Positions 35,294-41,713 are shown, numbered from the stretch's first letter. The stretch is DNA of 64,000 nucleotides from Candidatus Aminicenantes bacterium (GCA_963822075.1 CAWGGP010000009.1:72507-136506), one strand, 5' to 3'. Made by a program: numbers and translations. The notes: a model not told the origin generated them from the letters alone.

Positions 35294-37996
35294 TCAAACG
35301 GACCGGGGTGGAAGCTCCTTGACCGCTTCGATCACCGATCCGTCGGCCGACGGCGAGGTGGCGAAACCCAGTCGTTGGAATAGCGCCAGCATGCGTGCGT
35401 TGTCGCTGCCGGTCTGGGCGACGACGCGCTTCAGGCCCCAGTGGCCGGCGATCTCCAGGCAGCACTCGGTCAGGACGCTGCCCACCCCCTTGTTCTGCCA
35501 CTTGTCCCCGACCAGCACGGCGTATTCCACGCTTTCATGGTCGGGATCGGCGACCAGCCGCCCCACGCCCAGCAATTCACGGCGCCCGTCCCGGGTCCGC
35601 TCCGCCACCATGGCGATCTCCCGGTCATAATCGATGAAGCAGTAGCGGATCGCGGCCTGGTGCGATTGCCACTGGAAAAAATGGCGGAAACGGGCATAGA
35701 TGGATTCGCGCGAGCAGCCGGCGAGCAGGTCCATCCACATGGGCTCGTCCTCGGGCCGGATCGGCCGGAGCAGCAGCTCGGTGGCGTCGGGCAGGCGCGC
35801 CGGCCGGATGTATTCCTCGGGATACGGGCGCAGCGCCAGGTGGGCGTAGGGCCGCGAGCCGGCGGCAGGCAGGGGCCCTTCGACGACCAGGCGCGCGTCC
35901 AGGGCGATCACCCGCGAGGGGCTGGCCAGCAAGGGGTTGATGTCCAGCTCGGCGATCTCGGGATAATCGGCGGCGAAATAGGAAAGGCGGATCAGGACTT
36001 CAAGCAGGCGGTCGAGGCCGACCGCCGGCCGGCCGCGGTAGCCGTTGAGCAGCGGCCAGATCTTGAGCGACTCGAGCATGCGCCTGGCCAGGCGCTCGTT
36101 CAGCGGCGGAAAGCCCAGGCTGCGGTCGGCGAACAGCTCGGCGTTGGTGCCGCCCATGCCGGCCAGGACCACGGTGCCGAAGACGGGGTCCTTCTTGATG
36201 CCGAGGATCAGCTCCACCCCATGGGGGTCCTGGACCATCGGCTGCACGGTCACCCCCTCCAGCCTGGCCGCCGGCCTTTTCCGTTGCGCCCGCTGCCATG
36301 ATCGCCGCGAACGCCCGGCGCACCTCGGCCTCGCTGCCCAGGTCGAGGGCCACGCCGCCCACGTCGCTCTTGTGGGTGATGTCCGGGGAGAGGATCTTCA
36401 GGACGACGGGAAAGCCGATCGCGGCCGCCGCTGCGGCGGCGGCTTGCGGGTCGGCGGCCGCCCGCGGCAGGGCGGTGGGAATGCCGTACGCCTCGAGCAG
36501 GCGCTTGGAATCGCCTTCGGAGAGCACCCGTTTTTCGCCCCCCGCCAGCGCCTTGAATTCGGCGCTGCAGTTTCCGGCGGTCGGGAGTGAAGGACAGCGG
36601 GATGTCCATGGGCGTTTCGTAGAGGCTGGCCAGGTTGCGGGAATAGGCCACCAGGGTCATGAAGGCCCGCACCGCCTGCTCGGGGGTGCGGTAGCTGGCG
36701 ATGCCGGCTTCGGCGAGCAGGCGCCTGCCGTCCCCCATGCTGCTCCCGCCGAGCCAGGCGGCCAGGATCGGCTTCGCCGACAGGTCCTTGAGCTGGGCCA
36801 GCGCCTGGGCCATCGCCGTCGGGTTGGTCATGGCCTGGGGAGTGACGATCACCAGGACCGCGTCGGACGCGGAGTCCTGGAGGACGATCTCCACCGCCCT
36901 GGCCAGGCGCTTGGAGCGGGCATCGCCCAGGACGTCGACCGGGTTGCCGTGCGACCAGCAGGGAGGCAGCACCTCGTCCAGGCGCGCCAGCGTCTCCGGC
37001 GCCAGCGCCGCCAGCACTCCATTGGCGGCGATCAGGGCGTCGACGGCCATCACCCCGGGGCCGCCGGCGTTGGTCACGATGGCCAGGCGGGGCCCCGGGG
37101 GATCTTCTGGCGGCCGATCAGCTCGGCGCAGTCGAAGATCTCGCCGATGTCGCAGCACGCGGGCCAGGCCGGCGCGCTGGAACGCGGCGTCATAGATCGC
37201 GTCCTCGGCGGCCAGCGCCCCGGTGTGCGAGGCGGCCACCTGGGCCGACTCCGGGAAGCGGCCGGCCTTGTAGGCCACGATGGGCTTGCCGCGGGCGAAG
37301 GCGCGGGCGGCGGTCATGAACTTGCGCGCCTGGCCGATCGACTCCACGTACATGATGATGGAGCGGGTCTTCTCGTCTTCGCCCAGGTAATCGATCAGGT
37401 CGCCGAAATCCACGTCCAGGGCGTTGCCGATCGAGGCCACGCAGGAAAAGCCGATGTTCTCCTCCATGGCCCAGTCCAGCACCGCGGCGCACAACGCCCC
37501 CGACTGGGAAATGAAGGCGATGTGGCCGCTCTTGGGCAAGGCGCCGGCGAAGCTCATGTTGAGCTGGCGGCCGGGGACGATGACTCCCAGGCAGTTGGGG
37601 CCGAGGATGCGCATGCCGCCGAAGCGCTTCGCCTCCGCCTGGATCTCCTTTTCCAGCGCCAGGCCGGCCGGGCCGGTCTCGCGGAACCCGGCCGACACGA
37701 TGACCACTCCCGGGATGCCGGCTTCGCCGCAGGAGCGCACCAGGGCGGGGACCTGGGCCGCCGGCGCGCAGATCACCCCCACGTCGACGCGGCGCGGCAG
37801 CTTCGCCAGCTCCGGGAAGCAGGGAATGCCCATCACGGCCTCGAAGTCGGGATTGACGGGATAGACCACGCCGCGGAAGCCGCTGCCGACCAGGTTGCTC
37901 AAGACCTTGCCGCCGACGCTTTTCGGGTTGGCGCGTGACCCCGATCAGGGCGATTCGCTGCGGGTTGAAAATGTTCTCAAGACTGTGGATCGCCAT
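35294..37996 (-). CDS. ADP-forming acetyl/acyl-CoA synthetase fused to a GNAT acetyltransferase domain (Pat-like); multiple frameshifts as assembled
   Basis: The N-terminus is MAIHSLENIFNPQ.IALIGV / SRANPKSVGGKVLSNLVGSGFRGVVYPVNP (CoA-binding), followed by the succinyl-CoA-synthetase-like flavodoxin and ATP-grasp parts (ORFs 36250..37902, 36000..36527). The intact C-terminal ORF 35294..36253 ends in a GNAT domain (..YAVLVGDKWQNKGVGSVL..). The indels include a compensating pair at ~37095/37155. Confidence 0.8.
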
Positions 37997-38888
37997 GCCC
38001 CTTTTTCCTTTGCTCGTCCAGCACCCGGCGCATCGCCCGCGTGTGCTCGGGAGTCGTGCCGCAGCAGCCGCCGAGCACCGACACCCCCGCCGCCAGCAAT
38101 TCCCCGCCCTTTGCCGCCATGAACTCCGGCGTCTCGGGATAGTGGACCTTTCCCTGGCGCGATTCGGGCAGGCCGGCGTTGGGCTGGATCACCAGCGGCA
38201 GCGTGCTGGTCTGCTTGAATTCGCGGGCGATCGCGAGCATGTGCTCGCTGCCGTTGCCGCAGTTGGAGCCGACGAGGTCGGCGCCCGCCTTGGCGAGCTC
38301 GCGCAGGCCGCCGCGACCGACACGCCCATGACGGTGAAGTAGCCCCGCGGCGTGGCTCGAAGGTCATGGTGGCCATGACCGGGATGGTGGCGGAGACGCT
38401 GCGCGCGGCCTGGATGGCCAGCCGCGCCTCGGTGATGTCGGTCATGGTCTCGATGCAGACGAGGTCGGCCCCGGCGCCGATCACGGCCCGCATCTGCGCG
38501 CGGAAGCTTGCATCGAGCGTTTCCGCGTCCGTGTCCCCGAAGGGCTTGAGTATCCTGCCGCTGGGGCCGCACGAGGCGGAAACGTAGGCCCGCTCCCCGA
38601 CCGCCCGGCGCACCGCCTCGACCGCGCTCGGTTGATGCGCCGCCTCGCCGGCCAGCCCGTAGTTGGCCAGCTTCAGGGGCGAGGCCGCCGAAGGTGTTGG
38701 TCTGGATGATCTCGGCGCCGGCGTCGAAGTAGAGTCGGGCGATCTCCTCGAGCACCTGCGGCTGGGTCAGGTTGAGCCTCTCCGGAGCCGCGCCCCGGGG
38801 CAAGCCCGCGCGCCATGAGCAGCGTGCCCCAGGCCCCGTCGCCGACCAGGACCTCGCCGCGCCCCACCCGGGCCTTGAAGGATTCCAT
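37977..38888 (-). CDS. homocysteine S-methyltransferase-domain protein (MetH N-terminal/BHMT-like); multiple frameshifts as assembled
   Basis: It begins at ATG 38888 (MESFKARVGRGEVLVGDGAWGTLLMARGL). It continues ..LNLTQPQVLEEIARLYFDAGAEIIQTNTFG.., ..ADLVCIETMTDITEARLAIQAA.., ..LPLVIQPNAGLP.. and the Zn-site motif VLGGCCGTTPEH (ORF 37977..38240). Confidence 0.8.
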
Positions 38889-38889
38889 T

Positions 38890-39525
38890 TTAACCGGCCG
38901 CCGCCAGCTTTTTCACGCTCTCGACCGCCTGGGCGCAATCGTAGCCGTAGGCGTCGGCGCCGATCTCGGCGGCGTAGTCGCCGGAGACGGGGGCGCCGCC
39001 GACGATGGTCTTGATGCGGCCGGCGAGGTCTCCTTCTTGAGCAGGTCGACGACCTCCTTCATCACCGGCATGGTGGTGGTCAGCAGCGCCGACATGCCGA
39101 TGACCCGCGCCTCGCGGCTTTTCGCCGCGGCCACGAACGTCGGCGGCGGCACGTCGTTGCCTAGATCGATCACCTCGAAGCCGGCGCCCTTCAGCATGAT
39201 GGCGACCAGGTTCTTGCCGATGTCGTGCAGGTCGCCCTGGACCGAGCCGAGCACGACCCGGCCGCGGCTGGAGACGCCGCGCTGGCCAGCAGCGGCTTGA
39301 GGAGGTCGAGGCCGGCGTACATGGCCCGGGCGGCCAGCAGCACGTCGGGCAGGAAGATCTCGCGCTCGCGGAATTTTTCGCCCACCACGTTCATGCCGGC
39401 GATCAGGCCGTCGTCCAGGATCGACTGGGGTCGATGCCCTCCGCGAGGGCCTGGCGGGTCAACCGGGCGGCGCTGGCGTCATCGCCCTCTTCGAGGCTCA
39501 GGGCGATCGATTTCAGGATTTCCAT
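38890..39525 (-). CDS. cobalamin-binding corrinoid protein (B12-binding cap + Rossmann domains); frameshifted as assembled
   Basis: ATG 39525 follows GGAGGA. Traceable segments are ..GMNVVGEKFREREIFLPDVLLAARAM.. (cap), the DxHxxG motif VQGDLHDIGKNLV, ..VIGMSALLTTTMP.. and the C-terminus ..GGAPVSGDYAAEIGADAYGYD... The stop lies 2 nt before the next ATG. Confidence 0.8.
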
Positions 39526-39540
39526 GTTTTTCCTCCGTTG

Positions 39541-40244
39541 TTATGCGGACTTGCCCAAGTCCCTTTCCCGGCAGGCCGGGCTCTTGCACAGGGCGCAAAA
39601 TGGGAAGTTTCAGAAACCTGGTGGATCGGCGCCGGGCCGGCGACCAGCACCCCCGAAACCGATTTGAGCGGCGTCATCAGGAAACGTTCGTTCGAGCGTA
39701 CGCCGATCTCCTCCGGCTGCAGGGCCGCGAAAAGCGTTCGCTGGCCGCTGATATGCCAGCCGCAGTAGCCGGGGCTGTATAAAAAAGCCCGAGGGCGGGC
39801 CCCGTTGCCCCGGACTTGGCCCGCCGGTCCTCCGCCCAGGCCTCGGCGACGCGCCCGGCCTGGTCGGCCGCTGGCGAGGCGACGGCGTCGAGGATCGAGC
39901 CCAGGGCGAAATCCACGCCGGCGAACAGGCGCTGGATCTCGGCGCTGATCCCCTCCCCGAGGGTCGAAAACGAAAAGATGCAACTGGTCGGCGCGGGGAA
40001 ATATTTTTTCCAGCGGCGTCTCCGGCTGCGTTCAGCCCGCGGCCGCGAAAATAGGCCGCGAACTCTACCGCGCTGACCGGCCGGCTCAAGGCGCGGGGCT
40101 CTCCGGCGCAGTCGAAAATTTCCAGTGCCCGCTCGCAGCAACGCGGCGGAAGCGCGGGGAAGGCGCGGCGGCCGCTTTTCAGCCCCAGGGCGGCAGCACG
40201 TCGGCGGGGTCGGGCCGCAGCCGAGCCAGCGGGAAATCGATCAT
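39541..40244 (-). CDS. protein resembling the MetH reactivation (AdoMet-binding, Met_synt_B12) domain; frameshifted as assembled
   Basis: Traceable segments are ..FSTLGEGISAEIQRLFAGVDFALGSILDAVAS.. and ..YSPGYCGWHISGQRTLFAALQPEEIGVRSNERFLMTPLKSVSGVLVAGP.., the conserved core of the B12-dependent methionine synthase activation domain. Both ends are uncertain. Confidence 0.6.
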
Positions 40245-40302
40245 GCCTCGACCGGGCGGGCGGGAAGCGCGTCCATGCCGCGGCGCCGCGCTTCTTTGTC
40301 CA

Positions 40303-41713
40303 TCAGCGCGCATAATCCTTCTTGCGCTCGTCGGCGAGGCGCGAGGGCCGCCAGGCGCCGACCAGCCGCTCCACCTCGCGCCGGGCCCGCTGCCCGAGCG
40401 TCAGGCTGCCCTCCTCCCGCCAGCGCGAGAGATTGGCCCGGTCGATGACCGGCCCGGGAAATAAAGCTCATTCTTCAGATGTCGGCGCGTGTGCGGGGAG
40501 ATCAGCAGGTGGCCCTCGCGCAGCAACTCCTCGAATAGCGGCCGGGCGGGGAAGTCCTCGCGCGGCTCGATGCCGCGCGGCAGGCGCAGCGTCATGCCGC
40601 AGATCTCGTCGTCCAGGACCAGCTTCTCCAGGCTCTGGCAGCTCTCGAAATCGAGCATGCCGGGGCCGGAAACGCTGTTGATCCCGGAGAGGGCGGCGAG
40701 CGTGGCCCCCATGCCGGTCTCCAGCCCGGCCTGGGCGTCGAGCGTCTTGGCGTCGCTCAGCGCGATGTAGGCCTGGGTGGGCAGGCCGAGATGCTTGCCG
40801 ATCTCGTTGTAGGCGCAGTCGACCATCATGCGTCTCGATCGCGCCCATGGGCGTGGTCTCGTAGCGGATGTCGAAAATGGCCGGCGAGCCGCCGTAGAGC
40901 ACCGGGGTCCCGGGATGGCTGGCCTGGCTGATGACGACGCCGCTCAATGTTTCCGCCGCGTGCTGCACCAGGGTGCCCACCAGGGTCACCGGGGCCATGA
41001 AGCCGGAGAGCGGCATGGAGATGAATTCGACCGGGATGCCGGCGGCGGCGCAGTCGACCACGTTCTGCGACGTGATCTCGCTCCATTTCAGCGGCGCGGT
41101 CGGGCAGCAGGAAAAGATCGTCAGCGGCCTGGCGCGCAGCTCCTGCTCGCTGCCGCGCACGGCCAGCTGCATGTCGCGCATCACCTGGAAGGACTCGATG
41201 GTGAAGGCGCCGGTGACCACCGGCTTCTCGCCGTAGAGCAGGCTGAAGAAAAGCCGGTAGCTGTCCGAGACGAGGTCGGCCACGTCGGCCGGGATGAAGG
41301 CGGTGCTCTGCGCGGCGATATGGCCGCAGGCCGGTAAGGAGCTGGACGTAGCGGACATAGTCCGCGGTATCGGGCTTGCGGATCTGCTGGGTCCGGTGGT
41401 CGAGGATGTGCAGGGCCGCCGAGCCCGGGGTGAAATGGACATTGGCGCCGGAGAAATCGTGGGTCTCCTCGCCCATCACGTTAAAAAGCTTGAACGAGTG
41501 CGGAACCGTCGCCAGAGCGCGGTCCAGCACCGGGCCGGGAAACCAGGCGTGGCTTTTTCCCAGGTCCACCCGGGCGCCGAAGTCGCCCAGGAGCTTAAGG
41601 ACGCGCGGGTTCTGCACCTTGGTCCCCAGGTGACCCAGGATATCCCGGGCTTCGCCGACGATCCGTTCGAGCAGGTCCGCGCTCAGGAGTTTGAATTGCG
41701 GTCTCAAGGCCAT
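40303..41713 (-). CDS. MttB-superfamily (trimethylamine methyltransferase-like, non-pyrrolysine) methyltransferase; frameshifted as assembled
   Basis: ATG 41713 follows GGAGG. The sequence reads MALRPQFKLLSADLLERIVGEARDILGHLGTKVQNPRVLKLLGDFGARVD.., ..IFSCCPTAPLKWSEITSQNVVDCAAAGIPVEFISMPLSGFMAPVTL.., ..PMGAIET | MMVDCAYNEIGKHLGLPTQAYIALSDAKTLDAQAGLE... The frames are joined at ~41335 and ~40830, and again near 40460. No in-frame TAG is needed in the frames I traced. Confidence 0.8.

Follow-up and report, generated by a model that had tools for sequence, protein, structure and literature searches.

A conserved four-gene cassette pairing an MttB-family methyltransferase with a MetH-type homocysteine module: a candidate route to methionine from a non-folate methyl donor

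Gene content of the cluster

The stretch of DNA analysed here, 64,000 nucleotides from Candidatus Aminicenantes bacterium (GCA_963822075.1, CAWGGP010000009.1:72507-136506; hereafter the window), carries four abutting genes on its minus strand between positions 41713 and 37977, arranged head to tail and tightly packed. They encode an MttB-superfamily methyltransferase, a protein resembling the activation domain of the cobalamin-dependent methionine synthase MetH, a corrinoid protein and a stand-alone homocysteine (Hcy) S-methyltransferase (Table 1). The start of the activation-like gene overlaps the MttB stop codon (ATGA), the Hcy methyltransferase gene begins one base past the stop of the corrinoid gene, and an AAGGAGG-like ribosome-binding site lies immediately 5' of the MttB ATG at 41713. 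The original prediction had described this locus as a split MetH-like system in which an MttB-family enzyme takes the place of the methyl-tetrahydrofolate (methyl-THF) module. The cluster is real and had been located exactly, the motifs reported for it (YSPGYCGWHISGQRTLF, ERFLMTPLKSVSG, GDLHDIGKN and GGCCGTTPEH) were all recovered, and the domain identities were borne out by Pfam profile searches, the scores being taken on frame-joined proteins. The four genes are separate and Pfam detected a Pterin_bind domain in none of them, so that the architecture differs from that of canonical MetH (TIGR02082). The modules are those proposed. The donor module is of MttB type and the Hcy module of MetH type, a corrinoid carrier and a reactivation protein accompany them, and a pterin module is missing. 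Adjacent MttB-family, Met_synt_B12-like, B12-binding corrinoid and S-methyl_trans genes also make up the cluster described by Williams et al. 2022 (Environ Microbiol 24:2576, PMC9324843), and the window carries this same gene content.

Table 1. Coordinates of the cassette genes and associated features. Positions are those of the window, except for the last row, which lists loci.
Feature	Position	Strand	Evidence
MttB-superfamily methyltransferase, non-pyrrolysine, ~491 aa after indel correction	40241..41713	-	Pfam MTTB 227 bits
TM0269/MetH-activation-domain-like protein, ~233 aa	39541..40244	-	Pfam Met_synt_B12 27.6 bits
Corrinoid protein, ~212 aa	38890..39525	-	Pfam B12-binding_2 82.5 bits + B12-binding 101.7 bits
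Stand-alone homocysteine S-methyltransferase, ~303 aa	37977..38888	-	Pfam S-methyl_trans 220.5 bits
CTG (Leu) codon at the position equivalent to Pyl334 of M. barkeri MttB	40758..40760	-	Alignment to 7xcl + codon survey
C-terminus of the activation-like protein, with the CxxCxxxxC-x2-R motif	39541..39640	-	
PYLIS_3 match inside the MttB gene	40661..40760	-	Rfam, 26 bits
Pat-like acyl-CoA synthetase/GNAT gene	35294..37996	-	
Sister-group loci	L085-L164, e.g. L104, L132, L135, L138, L141, L142, L156 (Asgard archaea); L087, L090, L099		

Frameshifts had been suspected from the outset. Alignment of the 3.7-kb operon with six intact relatives revealed about 21 insertions or deletions of 1-2 bases found only in the window copy; the MttB frame is broken by 4-5 single-base indels and the activation-like gene contains at least 7 indels. 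A density of this order could mean that these genes have decayed to pseudogenes in this organism, which we consider extremely unlikely. Every lesion is a 1-2-base indel, nonsense substitutions are absent, and after the indels were neutralised each gene was full length with zero in-frame stops. Against the orthologues from locus L001, the ratio of nonsynonymous to synonymous substitution (dN/dS) was 0.16 (MttB), 0.17 (corrinoid protein) and 0.30 (Hcy module); the operon is under purifying selection. Similar frame breaks were found in the neighbouring Pat-like acyl-CoA synthetase gene and in the metH gene on another contig (C11). The frame breaks are very probably assembly errors and not gene decay, given the like breaks elsewhere in the genome, the absence of stops from the corrected frames and the dN/dS of 0.16-0.30. 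The genome is assembled in 14 contigs with an estimated completeness of 79%, and this small number of contigs, together with the completeness and the widespread breaks, is the pattern typical of an unpolished long-read assembly.

The MttB homologue, the only one encoded in the genome, matched the MTTB profile (PF06253) over positions 29-493 of 500 (227.4 bits, E 2.7e-67, cut-off 25) and is 89-90% identical to intact homologues of 490 aa. Its matches in the PDB were MttB (7xcl, E 1.7e-53) and MtgB (2qne, E 5e-51), with about one third identity to each. A close relative (P0002, 88% identical) scored 341.5 bits against TIGR02369, the model for MttB proper, which has a cut-off of 525. The gene needs no amber codon, as had been claimed: CTG (Leu) stands opposite Pyl334 in the alignment. 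Across the orthologous loci, 64 of the 69 matches in the codon survey had Leu at this position (CTC, CTG, TTG and others) and TAG was found in none. A tree was built with M. barkeri MttB and D. hafniense MtgB, both taken from PDB alignments, as references. In it all 152 cassette-family sequences form a single group, split off from the two references at 100% support; the position of the homologue outside the MtgB and MttB clades is thus established relative to these two proteins. Rfam returned a PYLIS_3 match inside the window gene, beginning exactly at the Pyl-aligned Leu codon. Matches to the same family were found in non-Pyl orthologues (L004 and L011, 6952-7051; L032, 6948-7045), three loci scoring above the gathering score. 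We read these matches as coding-sequence similarity to mttB, and not as a functional element.

The window's activation-like protein scored 27.6 bits against Met_synt_B12 (cut-off 25), and its family profile matched T. maritima TM0269 (1J6R) with an E value of 1.9e-10. An AF2 model of the L001 orthologue (pLDDT 88) returned 1J6R as the top Foldseek match (E 3.9e-10, TMt 0.72), followed by the MetH activation domains 1MSK, 6BM5 and 8SSE. The modelled fold is that of TM0269 and the MetH activation domain. Alignment of the family (A1) revealed a SPGYCGW motif with an invariant Cys, and a CxxCxxxxC-x2-R motif is conserved at the C-terminus. The CxxCxxxxC motif is missing from TM0269; it reappears in those sister clades, Asgard archaea among them, that have a linked Hcy gene, and not in the Eubacteriales group that has no Hcy gene. 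Since the SPGYCGW Cys is invariant and the C-terminal motif conserved, the two motifs suggest a Cys3-4 metal site.

The corrinoid protein consists of a B12-binding_2 cap and a B12-binding Rossmann domain with a His-on DxHxxG motif (GDLHDIGKN). The best NCBIfam matches of the L001 orthologue were MtgC-type (212 bits) and pyl_corrinoid (200 bits), while metH reached 131 bits. Scores were below threshold for every named equivalog (MtgC_2: 212 vs 370), and the protein is assigned by these profiles to the MtgC/MttC methylamine type without specific orthology. The Hcy protein (S-methyl_trans, PF02574, 220.5 bits) has intact homologues of 304 aa with up to 83% identity. Among solved structures it is closest to the Hcy domain of T. 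maritima MetH (1Q7M, E 1.4e-50), with BHMT and MmuM well behind at E values of 1e-15 and 9e-13, respectively. In the alignment, the Zn-ligand Cys residues (GSNCGNG, GGCCGTTPEH) occupy the positions of C207, C272 and C273 in the T. maritima protein, and the DGAxG, NTFGA, E-T-x-x-D and GGCCGTTP motifs are all kept.

Taken at the level of sequence, the MttB homologue is presumed to be the methyl donor:corrinoid methyltransferase (MT1), the Hcy protein the methylcorrinoid:homocysteine methyltransferase (MT2) and the activation-like protein their reductive reactivation partner. The idea of a MetH split into its modules held for the Hcy module, which is of MetH type, and failed for the corrinoid protein, which is of MtgC/MttC type and not derived from MetH. 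Because the corrinoid protein is of the methylamine type, the cassette is best described as a chimera of a methylamine-type front end and a MetH-type back end, and not as a MetH that has fallen apart.

Conservation and distribution of the cassette

A scan at species level, with one genome per species, returned 80 loci whose MttB proteins share 65-89% identity and which span more than 15 phyla. They include Aminicenantes, Acidobacteriota, WOR-3, Planctomycetota, Ignavibacteria, Bacteroidota and Zixibacteria, as well as Cloacimonadota, Fermentibacteria, Aegiribacteria, Gemmatimonadota, Marinimicrobia, Lentisphaeria, Calditrichia and others. The survey of gene neighbourhoods for MttB and S-methyl_trans proposed in the original prediction gave a clear outcome. 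The window's clade includes 74 unique loci with at least 2.6 kb of downstream flank; in 64 of them all three partners adjoin the MttB gene, and an arrangement kept in this proportion of orthologous loci is far from chance. Homologues of the MttB and Hcy proteins (up to 89% and 83% identity, respectively) are intact and lie on the same contigs. The order in loci L001-L003 is MTTB, Met_synt_B12, B12-binding and S-methyl_trans, with genes overlapping or abutting; in Bacteroidota the activation gene is upstream.

The window's clade (90 rows in the tree) received 100% support, and the nearest relatives of the window are Aminicenantes metagenome-assembled genomes (MAGs). A search of 1.84 billion proteins (50%-identity representatives) showed that relatives form a continuum of 64, 57, 55, 52, 48...% identity, which ruled out an isolated clade. 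Sister clades lie at 43-51% identity. In many of the 80 sister-group loci fetched, MttB is again linked with corrinoid and S-methyl_trans genes, which are arranged differently. The order corrinoid protein, Hcy module, activation protein and MttB (Cor-Hcy-Act-MttB) occurs in several bacterial phyla. Thor-, Heimdall-, Prometh- and Hodarchaeota have Cor-Hcy-MttB or Cor-Hcy-Act-MttB, with an MttB 43-47% identical to the bacterial cassette enzyme; no mention of MttB-Hcy clusters in Asgard archaea was found in the literature. Because sister clades, including Asgard archaea, link the same parts in other orders, the pairing of an MttB-family enzyme with an Hcy module predates the tight cassette and extends beyond it.

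A sister group from Eubacteriales and Aminicenantes has Cor(-Act)-MttB without an Hcy gene, and an amino-acid permease or a RACo-type activase is found nearby instead. These loci look like ordinary catabolic MttB modules. An APC-family amino-acid permease is encoded at one of them (Aminicenantes JdFR-78, L101 7455-8825), and a RACo/RamA-type activase with an amidohydrolase at another (Clostridiales, L125 3509-5272).

The surroundings of the cassette vary. In WOR-3 the neighbours (an aldo-keto reductase, a PEMT-like protein, an EamA transporter and others) were uninformative. At L072 (7436-10661) the MttB and corrinoid genes are followed by a gene of 855 aa, with no activation or Hcy genes. Judged from its sequence, the 855-aa product looks like a dimethylglycine/sarcosine dehydrogenase (a flavin adenine dinucleotide part plus a GcvT-like part), and the MttB product at this locus may belong to the methylglycine (glycine betaine) series, a lone hint. 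In the window, the first 20 nt of the Pat-like acyl-CoA synthetase/GNAT gene overlap the 3' end of the Hcy gene. Because it is missing from the syntenic loci L002 and L003, where a DUF362 gene follows directly, this gene is a lineage-specific insertion and not a part of the cassette.

Methionine synthase inventory of cassette-bearing genomes

Fifty cassette-bearing species genomes were searched with the metH model. Pterin-containing MetH was found in 35 and was missing from the other 15. Ten of the MetH-less genomes encode MetE or core-MetE proteins of about 330 aa and five have neither, although very distant core synthases could escape the Pfam model. Methylenetetrahydrofolate reductase (MTHFR) is missing from 8 of the 15, including all five without MetE. 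Exactly one Pterin_bind match, of FolP strength, was present in 14 of the 15, and a single-amplified genome (SAG) had none. A pterin-binding gene had been considered as the possible real partner of the MttB homologue; none was found within 6 kb in 160 loci with a tblastn query of limited reach.

The five genomes without MetH, MetE or core-MetE, and MTHFR are a closed WOR-3 chromosome of 2.37 Mb (CP070802.1, genome G040, locus L069) and four others (G028, G033, G039 and G046), which are two Cloacimonadota, one Marinimicrobia SAG and one Zixibacteria. CP070802 encodes AhcY (S-adenosylhomocysteine (AdoHcy) hydrolase) and two strong Cys_Met_Meta_PP enzymes resembling O-acetylhomoserine sulfhydrylase; among the other four, AdoHcy hydrolase was found in two and a strong pyridoxal phosphate (PLP) enzyme in two. 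With AdoHcy hydrolase and two strong PLP enzymes of Cys/Met metabolism, the CP070802 organism is predicted to make homocysteine, and its genome appears to hold no other recognisable route for methylating it and no evident source of methyl-THF. This inventory supports a folate-independent role for the cassette and argues against methyl-THF as the donor. For the five genomes this leaves the cassette as apparently the sole candidate for a methionine synthase, and where MetH, MetE and MTHFR are all missing the donor is unlikely to be methyl-THF. The original claim of methionine synthesis independent of methyl-THF is strengthened by these genomes, one of them closed; its chemistry and its donor stay at the level of prediction.

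A predicted methyl relay and its alternatives

We propose that the operon encodes a corrinoid-dependent relay to methionine, in which the methyl group comes from an N-methyl donor other than folate and passes over an MtgC-type corrinoid protein, with repair of the TM0269 type. This is the reading we favour, and we hold it to be probable, although well short of certain. Its four steps, which we infer against the observed background of gene content, folds and motifs, conservation, purifying selection and genomic distribution, would be as follows. The MttB-superfamily enzyme would bind an N-methylated donor, by the logic of the family most likely a quaternary amine, and one not bound in the manner of MtgB. 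The cob(I)amide of the corrinoid protein would accept the methyl group from this donor. The methyl-Co(III) corrinoid protein would then dock on the MetH-type Hcy module, where the Zn-activated homocysteine thiolate would take the methyl group, yielding methionine and regenerating Co(I). Oxidation of the cofactor to Co(II) would be repaired by the TM0269-type protein through reductive remethylation, the methyl group probably coming from S-adenosylmethionine (AdoMet). The operon would work beside canonical MetH in the window's genome and would apparently be the only methionine synthase in some lineages. A wider proposal, which we hold tentatively, is that in uncultured WOR-3, Cloacimonadota and Zixibacteria the cassette is the sole methionine synthase and is tied to an external or endogenous N-methyl donor instead of folate, that the reactivation protein is a new Cys3-4 metal-binding variant of the MetH activation domain, and that the pairing of MttB with the Hcy module is ancient enough to be shared with Asgard archaea.

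Several observations weigh against the proposed relay. The window's genome contains a full-length metH beside metF (contig C11, about 140500-143800, minus strand), split by frameshifts and comprising Hcy, pterin, B12 and activation modules, the last with RxxxGY. This separate gene disposes of the possibility that the four cassette genes are pieces of an ordinary metH, and because the genome has a complete MetH and metF the cassette is accessory there and not essential. An unlinked gene on contig C2 (164552-165430, plus strand; L084 6583-7431) encodes a 282-aa distant Pterin_bind homologue with a full-length profile match of 35 bits. The adjacent gene encodes an ABC exporter, and the vicinity lacks corrinoid genes; the product of the C2 gene could be similar to methyl-pterin methyltransferases and so leaves room for a hidden pterin partner. 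Four of the five genomes without another synthase are incomplete MAGs or a SAG. The activation-like protein is a further difficulty. Its P-G-Y is invariant, but the Arg of RxxxGY, which we take to be the motif by which MetH activation domains bind AdoMet, is replaced by Leu in the window copy (FLYSPGY) and occurs in only 22 of 57 orthologues, while TM0269, T. thermophilus MetH and the sister-clade proteins retain it. The idea of a dedicated reactivation subunit is thus supported by the TM0269/MetH activation fold and weakened by the absence of this Arg from the window copy.

Nor is the donor indicated by its surroundings or by its expected ligands. No conserved transporter or catabolic gene was found beyond the four genes in the orthologous loci. 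No SAM (AdoMet) or B12 riboswitch was detected upstream in window positions 30-50 kb or in 11 loci, the only Rfam matches in this search being PYLIS_3 within coding sequence. The residues with which MtgB binds glycine betaine are Y97, R312, H348 and F356 (Picking et al. 2026, PMC13080624). In the alignment with 2qne they correspond to S98, Q313, S348 and E356 (with F355 adjacent), the S348 and E356 assignments being less certain because of a one-residue gap near 348-356. Since the four MtgB ligands align to S, Q, S and E, the donor is probably not glycine betaine bound in the MtgB manner. Finally, no biochemical or genetic test of the cassette was found in the literature.

A related network has been studied in Ruegeria, where genetics placed MtgB, the corrinoid protein MtgC, the pterin-binding MtgD and the Hcy-binding MtgE in one network (Mausz et al. 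2025, PMC12478193). These genetic results show that one corrinoid protein can serve both an MttB-family enzyme and an Hcy module, which counts in favour of the relay. The same logic admits a shared-corrinoid hub like MtgBCDE, in which the MttB homologue would feed THF through an unlinked pterin methyltransferase and the Hcy module would make methionine from methyl-THF; the pterin gene mtgD is itself unlinked, and the 282-aa homologue on C2 could fill that place. We nevertheless consider this unlikely. The single pterin match of FolP strength in 14 of the 15 MetH-less genomes, and its absence from the SAG, leave little room for such an enzyme, MTHFR is missing from 8 of the 15, the limited tblastn query found no pterin gene near the 160 loci, and the C2 gene stands beside an ABC transporter away from any corrinoid gene. 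As to features of the MtgBCDE type, the operon lacks a pterin gene and carries a TM0269-type protein, and the genome holds the one unlinked, distant Pterin_bind homologue on C2.

The MttB homologue might instead have replaced the pterin module functionally and use methyl-THF or another methylated pterin, which would make the cassette an ordinary folate-dependent synthase built from different parts. The protein is unusually conserved across phyla (65-89% identity), single-copy and housekeeping-like, MttB, MeTr and the MetH folate module are all structurally similar TIM barrels (PMC9842639), and many MetH-less cassette genomes carry a YitJ-like fusion of Hcy methyltransferase and MTHFR. However, characterised members of the MttB superfamily all use methylamines or quaternary amines, and we rank methyl-THF low as a donor because 8 of the 15 MetH-less genomes, the closed WOR-3 chromosome among them, lack MTHFR and so have no evident supply of it; this explanation is improbable. 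It is very improbable that the acceptor is a thiol or selenol other than homocysteine, or that the relay runs in reverse and carries a sulfonium methyl group to an amine through MttB. The S-methyl_trans family does include BHMT and the S-methylmethionine (SMM)/AdoMet:Hcy enzymes, and NCBIfam places YitJ-type and 'BHMT'-type models above metH. Against this, Zn-activated homocysteine is the acceptor in every characterised family member, and the solved structure closest to the cassette protein is the Hcy domain of MetH, whose motifs it keeps. Reversal would require the demethylation of methionine, which is thermodynamically unfavourable for MetH.

The relay from a non-folate donor, our preferred explanation, is not a new hypothesis. 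Williams et al. 2022 (PMC9324843) described the same cluster in Ca. Electryoneota and 'diverse bacteria' and proposed corrinoid-dependent methionine synthesis from an unknown methyl donor. Their cluster has the same four gene types, no pyrrolysine, an MttB clade apart from MttB and MtgB, and canonical MetH in the genome. It differs in nothing essential; the window is a further member, in an Aminicenantes-like genome with assembly indels, and alone adds little. What is new is the tally of 64/74 loci, the sister clades including Asgard archaea, the set of genomes in which MetH, MetE and MTHFR are all missing, and the activation protein's Cys motif.

Other known systems share parts of this arrangement. 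The MtgBCDE system of Ruegeria pomeroyi and the three-part split MetH of Phaeobacter inhibens also combine an MttB-family methyltransferase with stand-alone corrinoid and Hcy proteins around one cobalamin carrier, linking methylamine demethylation to methionine synthesis. In these aerobes, MtgD is essential, the methyl group passes through THF, the genes are scattered and reactivation is by RamA/DUF1638, whereas the cassette is a tight operon with a TM0269-type reactivation protein and no pterin gene. D. hafniense MtgB/MtgC/MtgA (glycine betaine:THF) and the E. limosum MtcB, MtpB, MtyB and MthB systems likewise pair a non-Pyl MttB-superfamily MT1 with an MtgC-type corrinoid protein; their MT2 is a pterin-binding methyltransferase acting on THF and their activation is by RamA/RACo. 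D. hafniense MtgB itself shares about one third identity with the cassette MttB, in which its residues Y97, R312, H348 and F356 are not conserved. The split MetH of T. maritima (TM0268 + TM0269, 1J6R; Huang et al. 2007) offers a stand-alone activation protein of the same fold. In TM0268, unlike the cassette, the Hcy, pterin and B12 modules are still joined in one protein, and TM0269 differs from the window protein in having the RxxxGY Arg and no C-terminal CxxCxxxxC. The idea of a folate-independent synthase supplied by a corrinoid protein was established by Price & Arkin 2021 (PMC7857596); their core synthases MesA, MesB and MesC also occur in anaerobes and methylate homocysteine directly from a methyl-corrinoid protein, bypassing folate. 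They are MetE-type (Meth_synt_2) and not S-methyl_trans enzymes, and their predicted donors are MtrA or CoFeSP and not an MttB-loaded protein.

If the proposed relay is correct, the cassette would constitute a third route to methionine, beside folate-dependent MetH/MetE and core-MetE, and would couple the methionine/AdoMet cycle through vitamin B12 to methylated amines (osmolytes and breakdown products). The cassette is present in at least 15 mostly uncultured bacterial phyla, with related forms in Asgard archaea. Its function would bear on the prediction of auxotrophy, on cross-feeding of B12 and osmolytes in sediments and on the design of media for uncultured groups, and genomes apparently without any methionine synthase would have to be reinterpreted.

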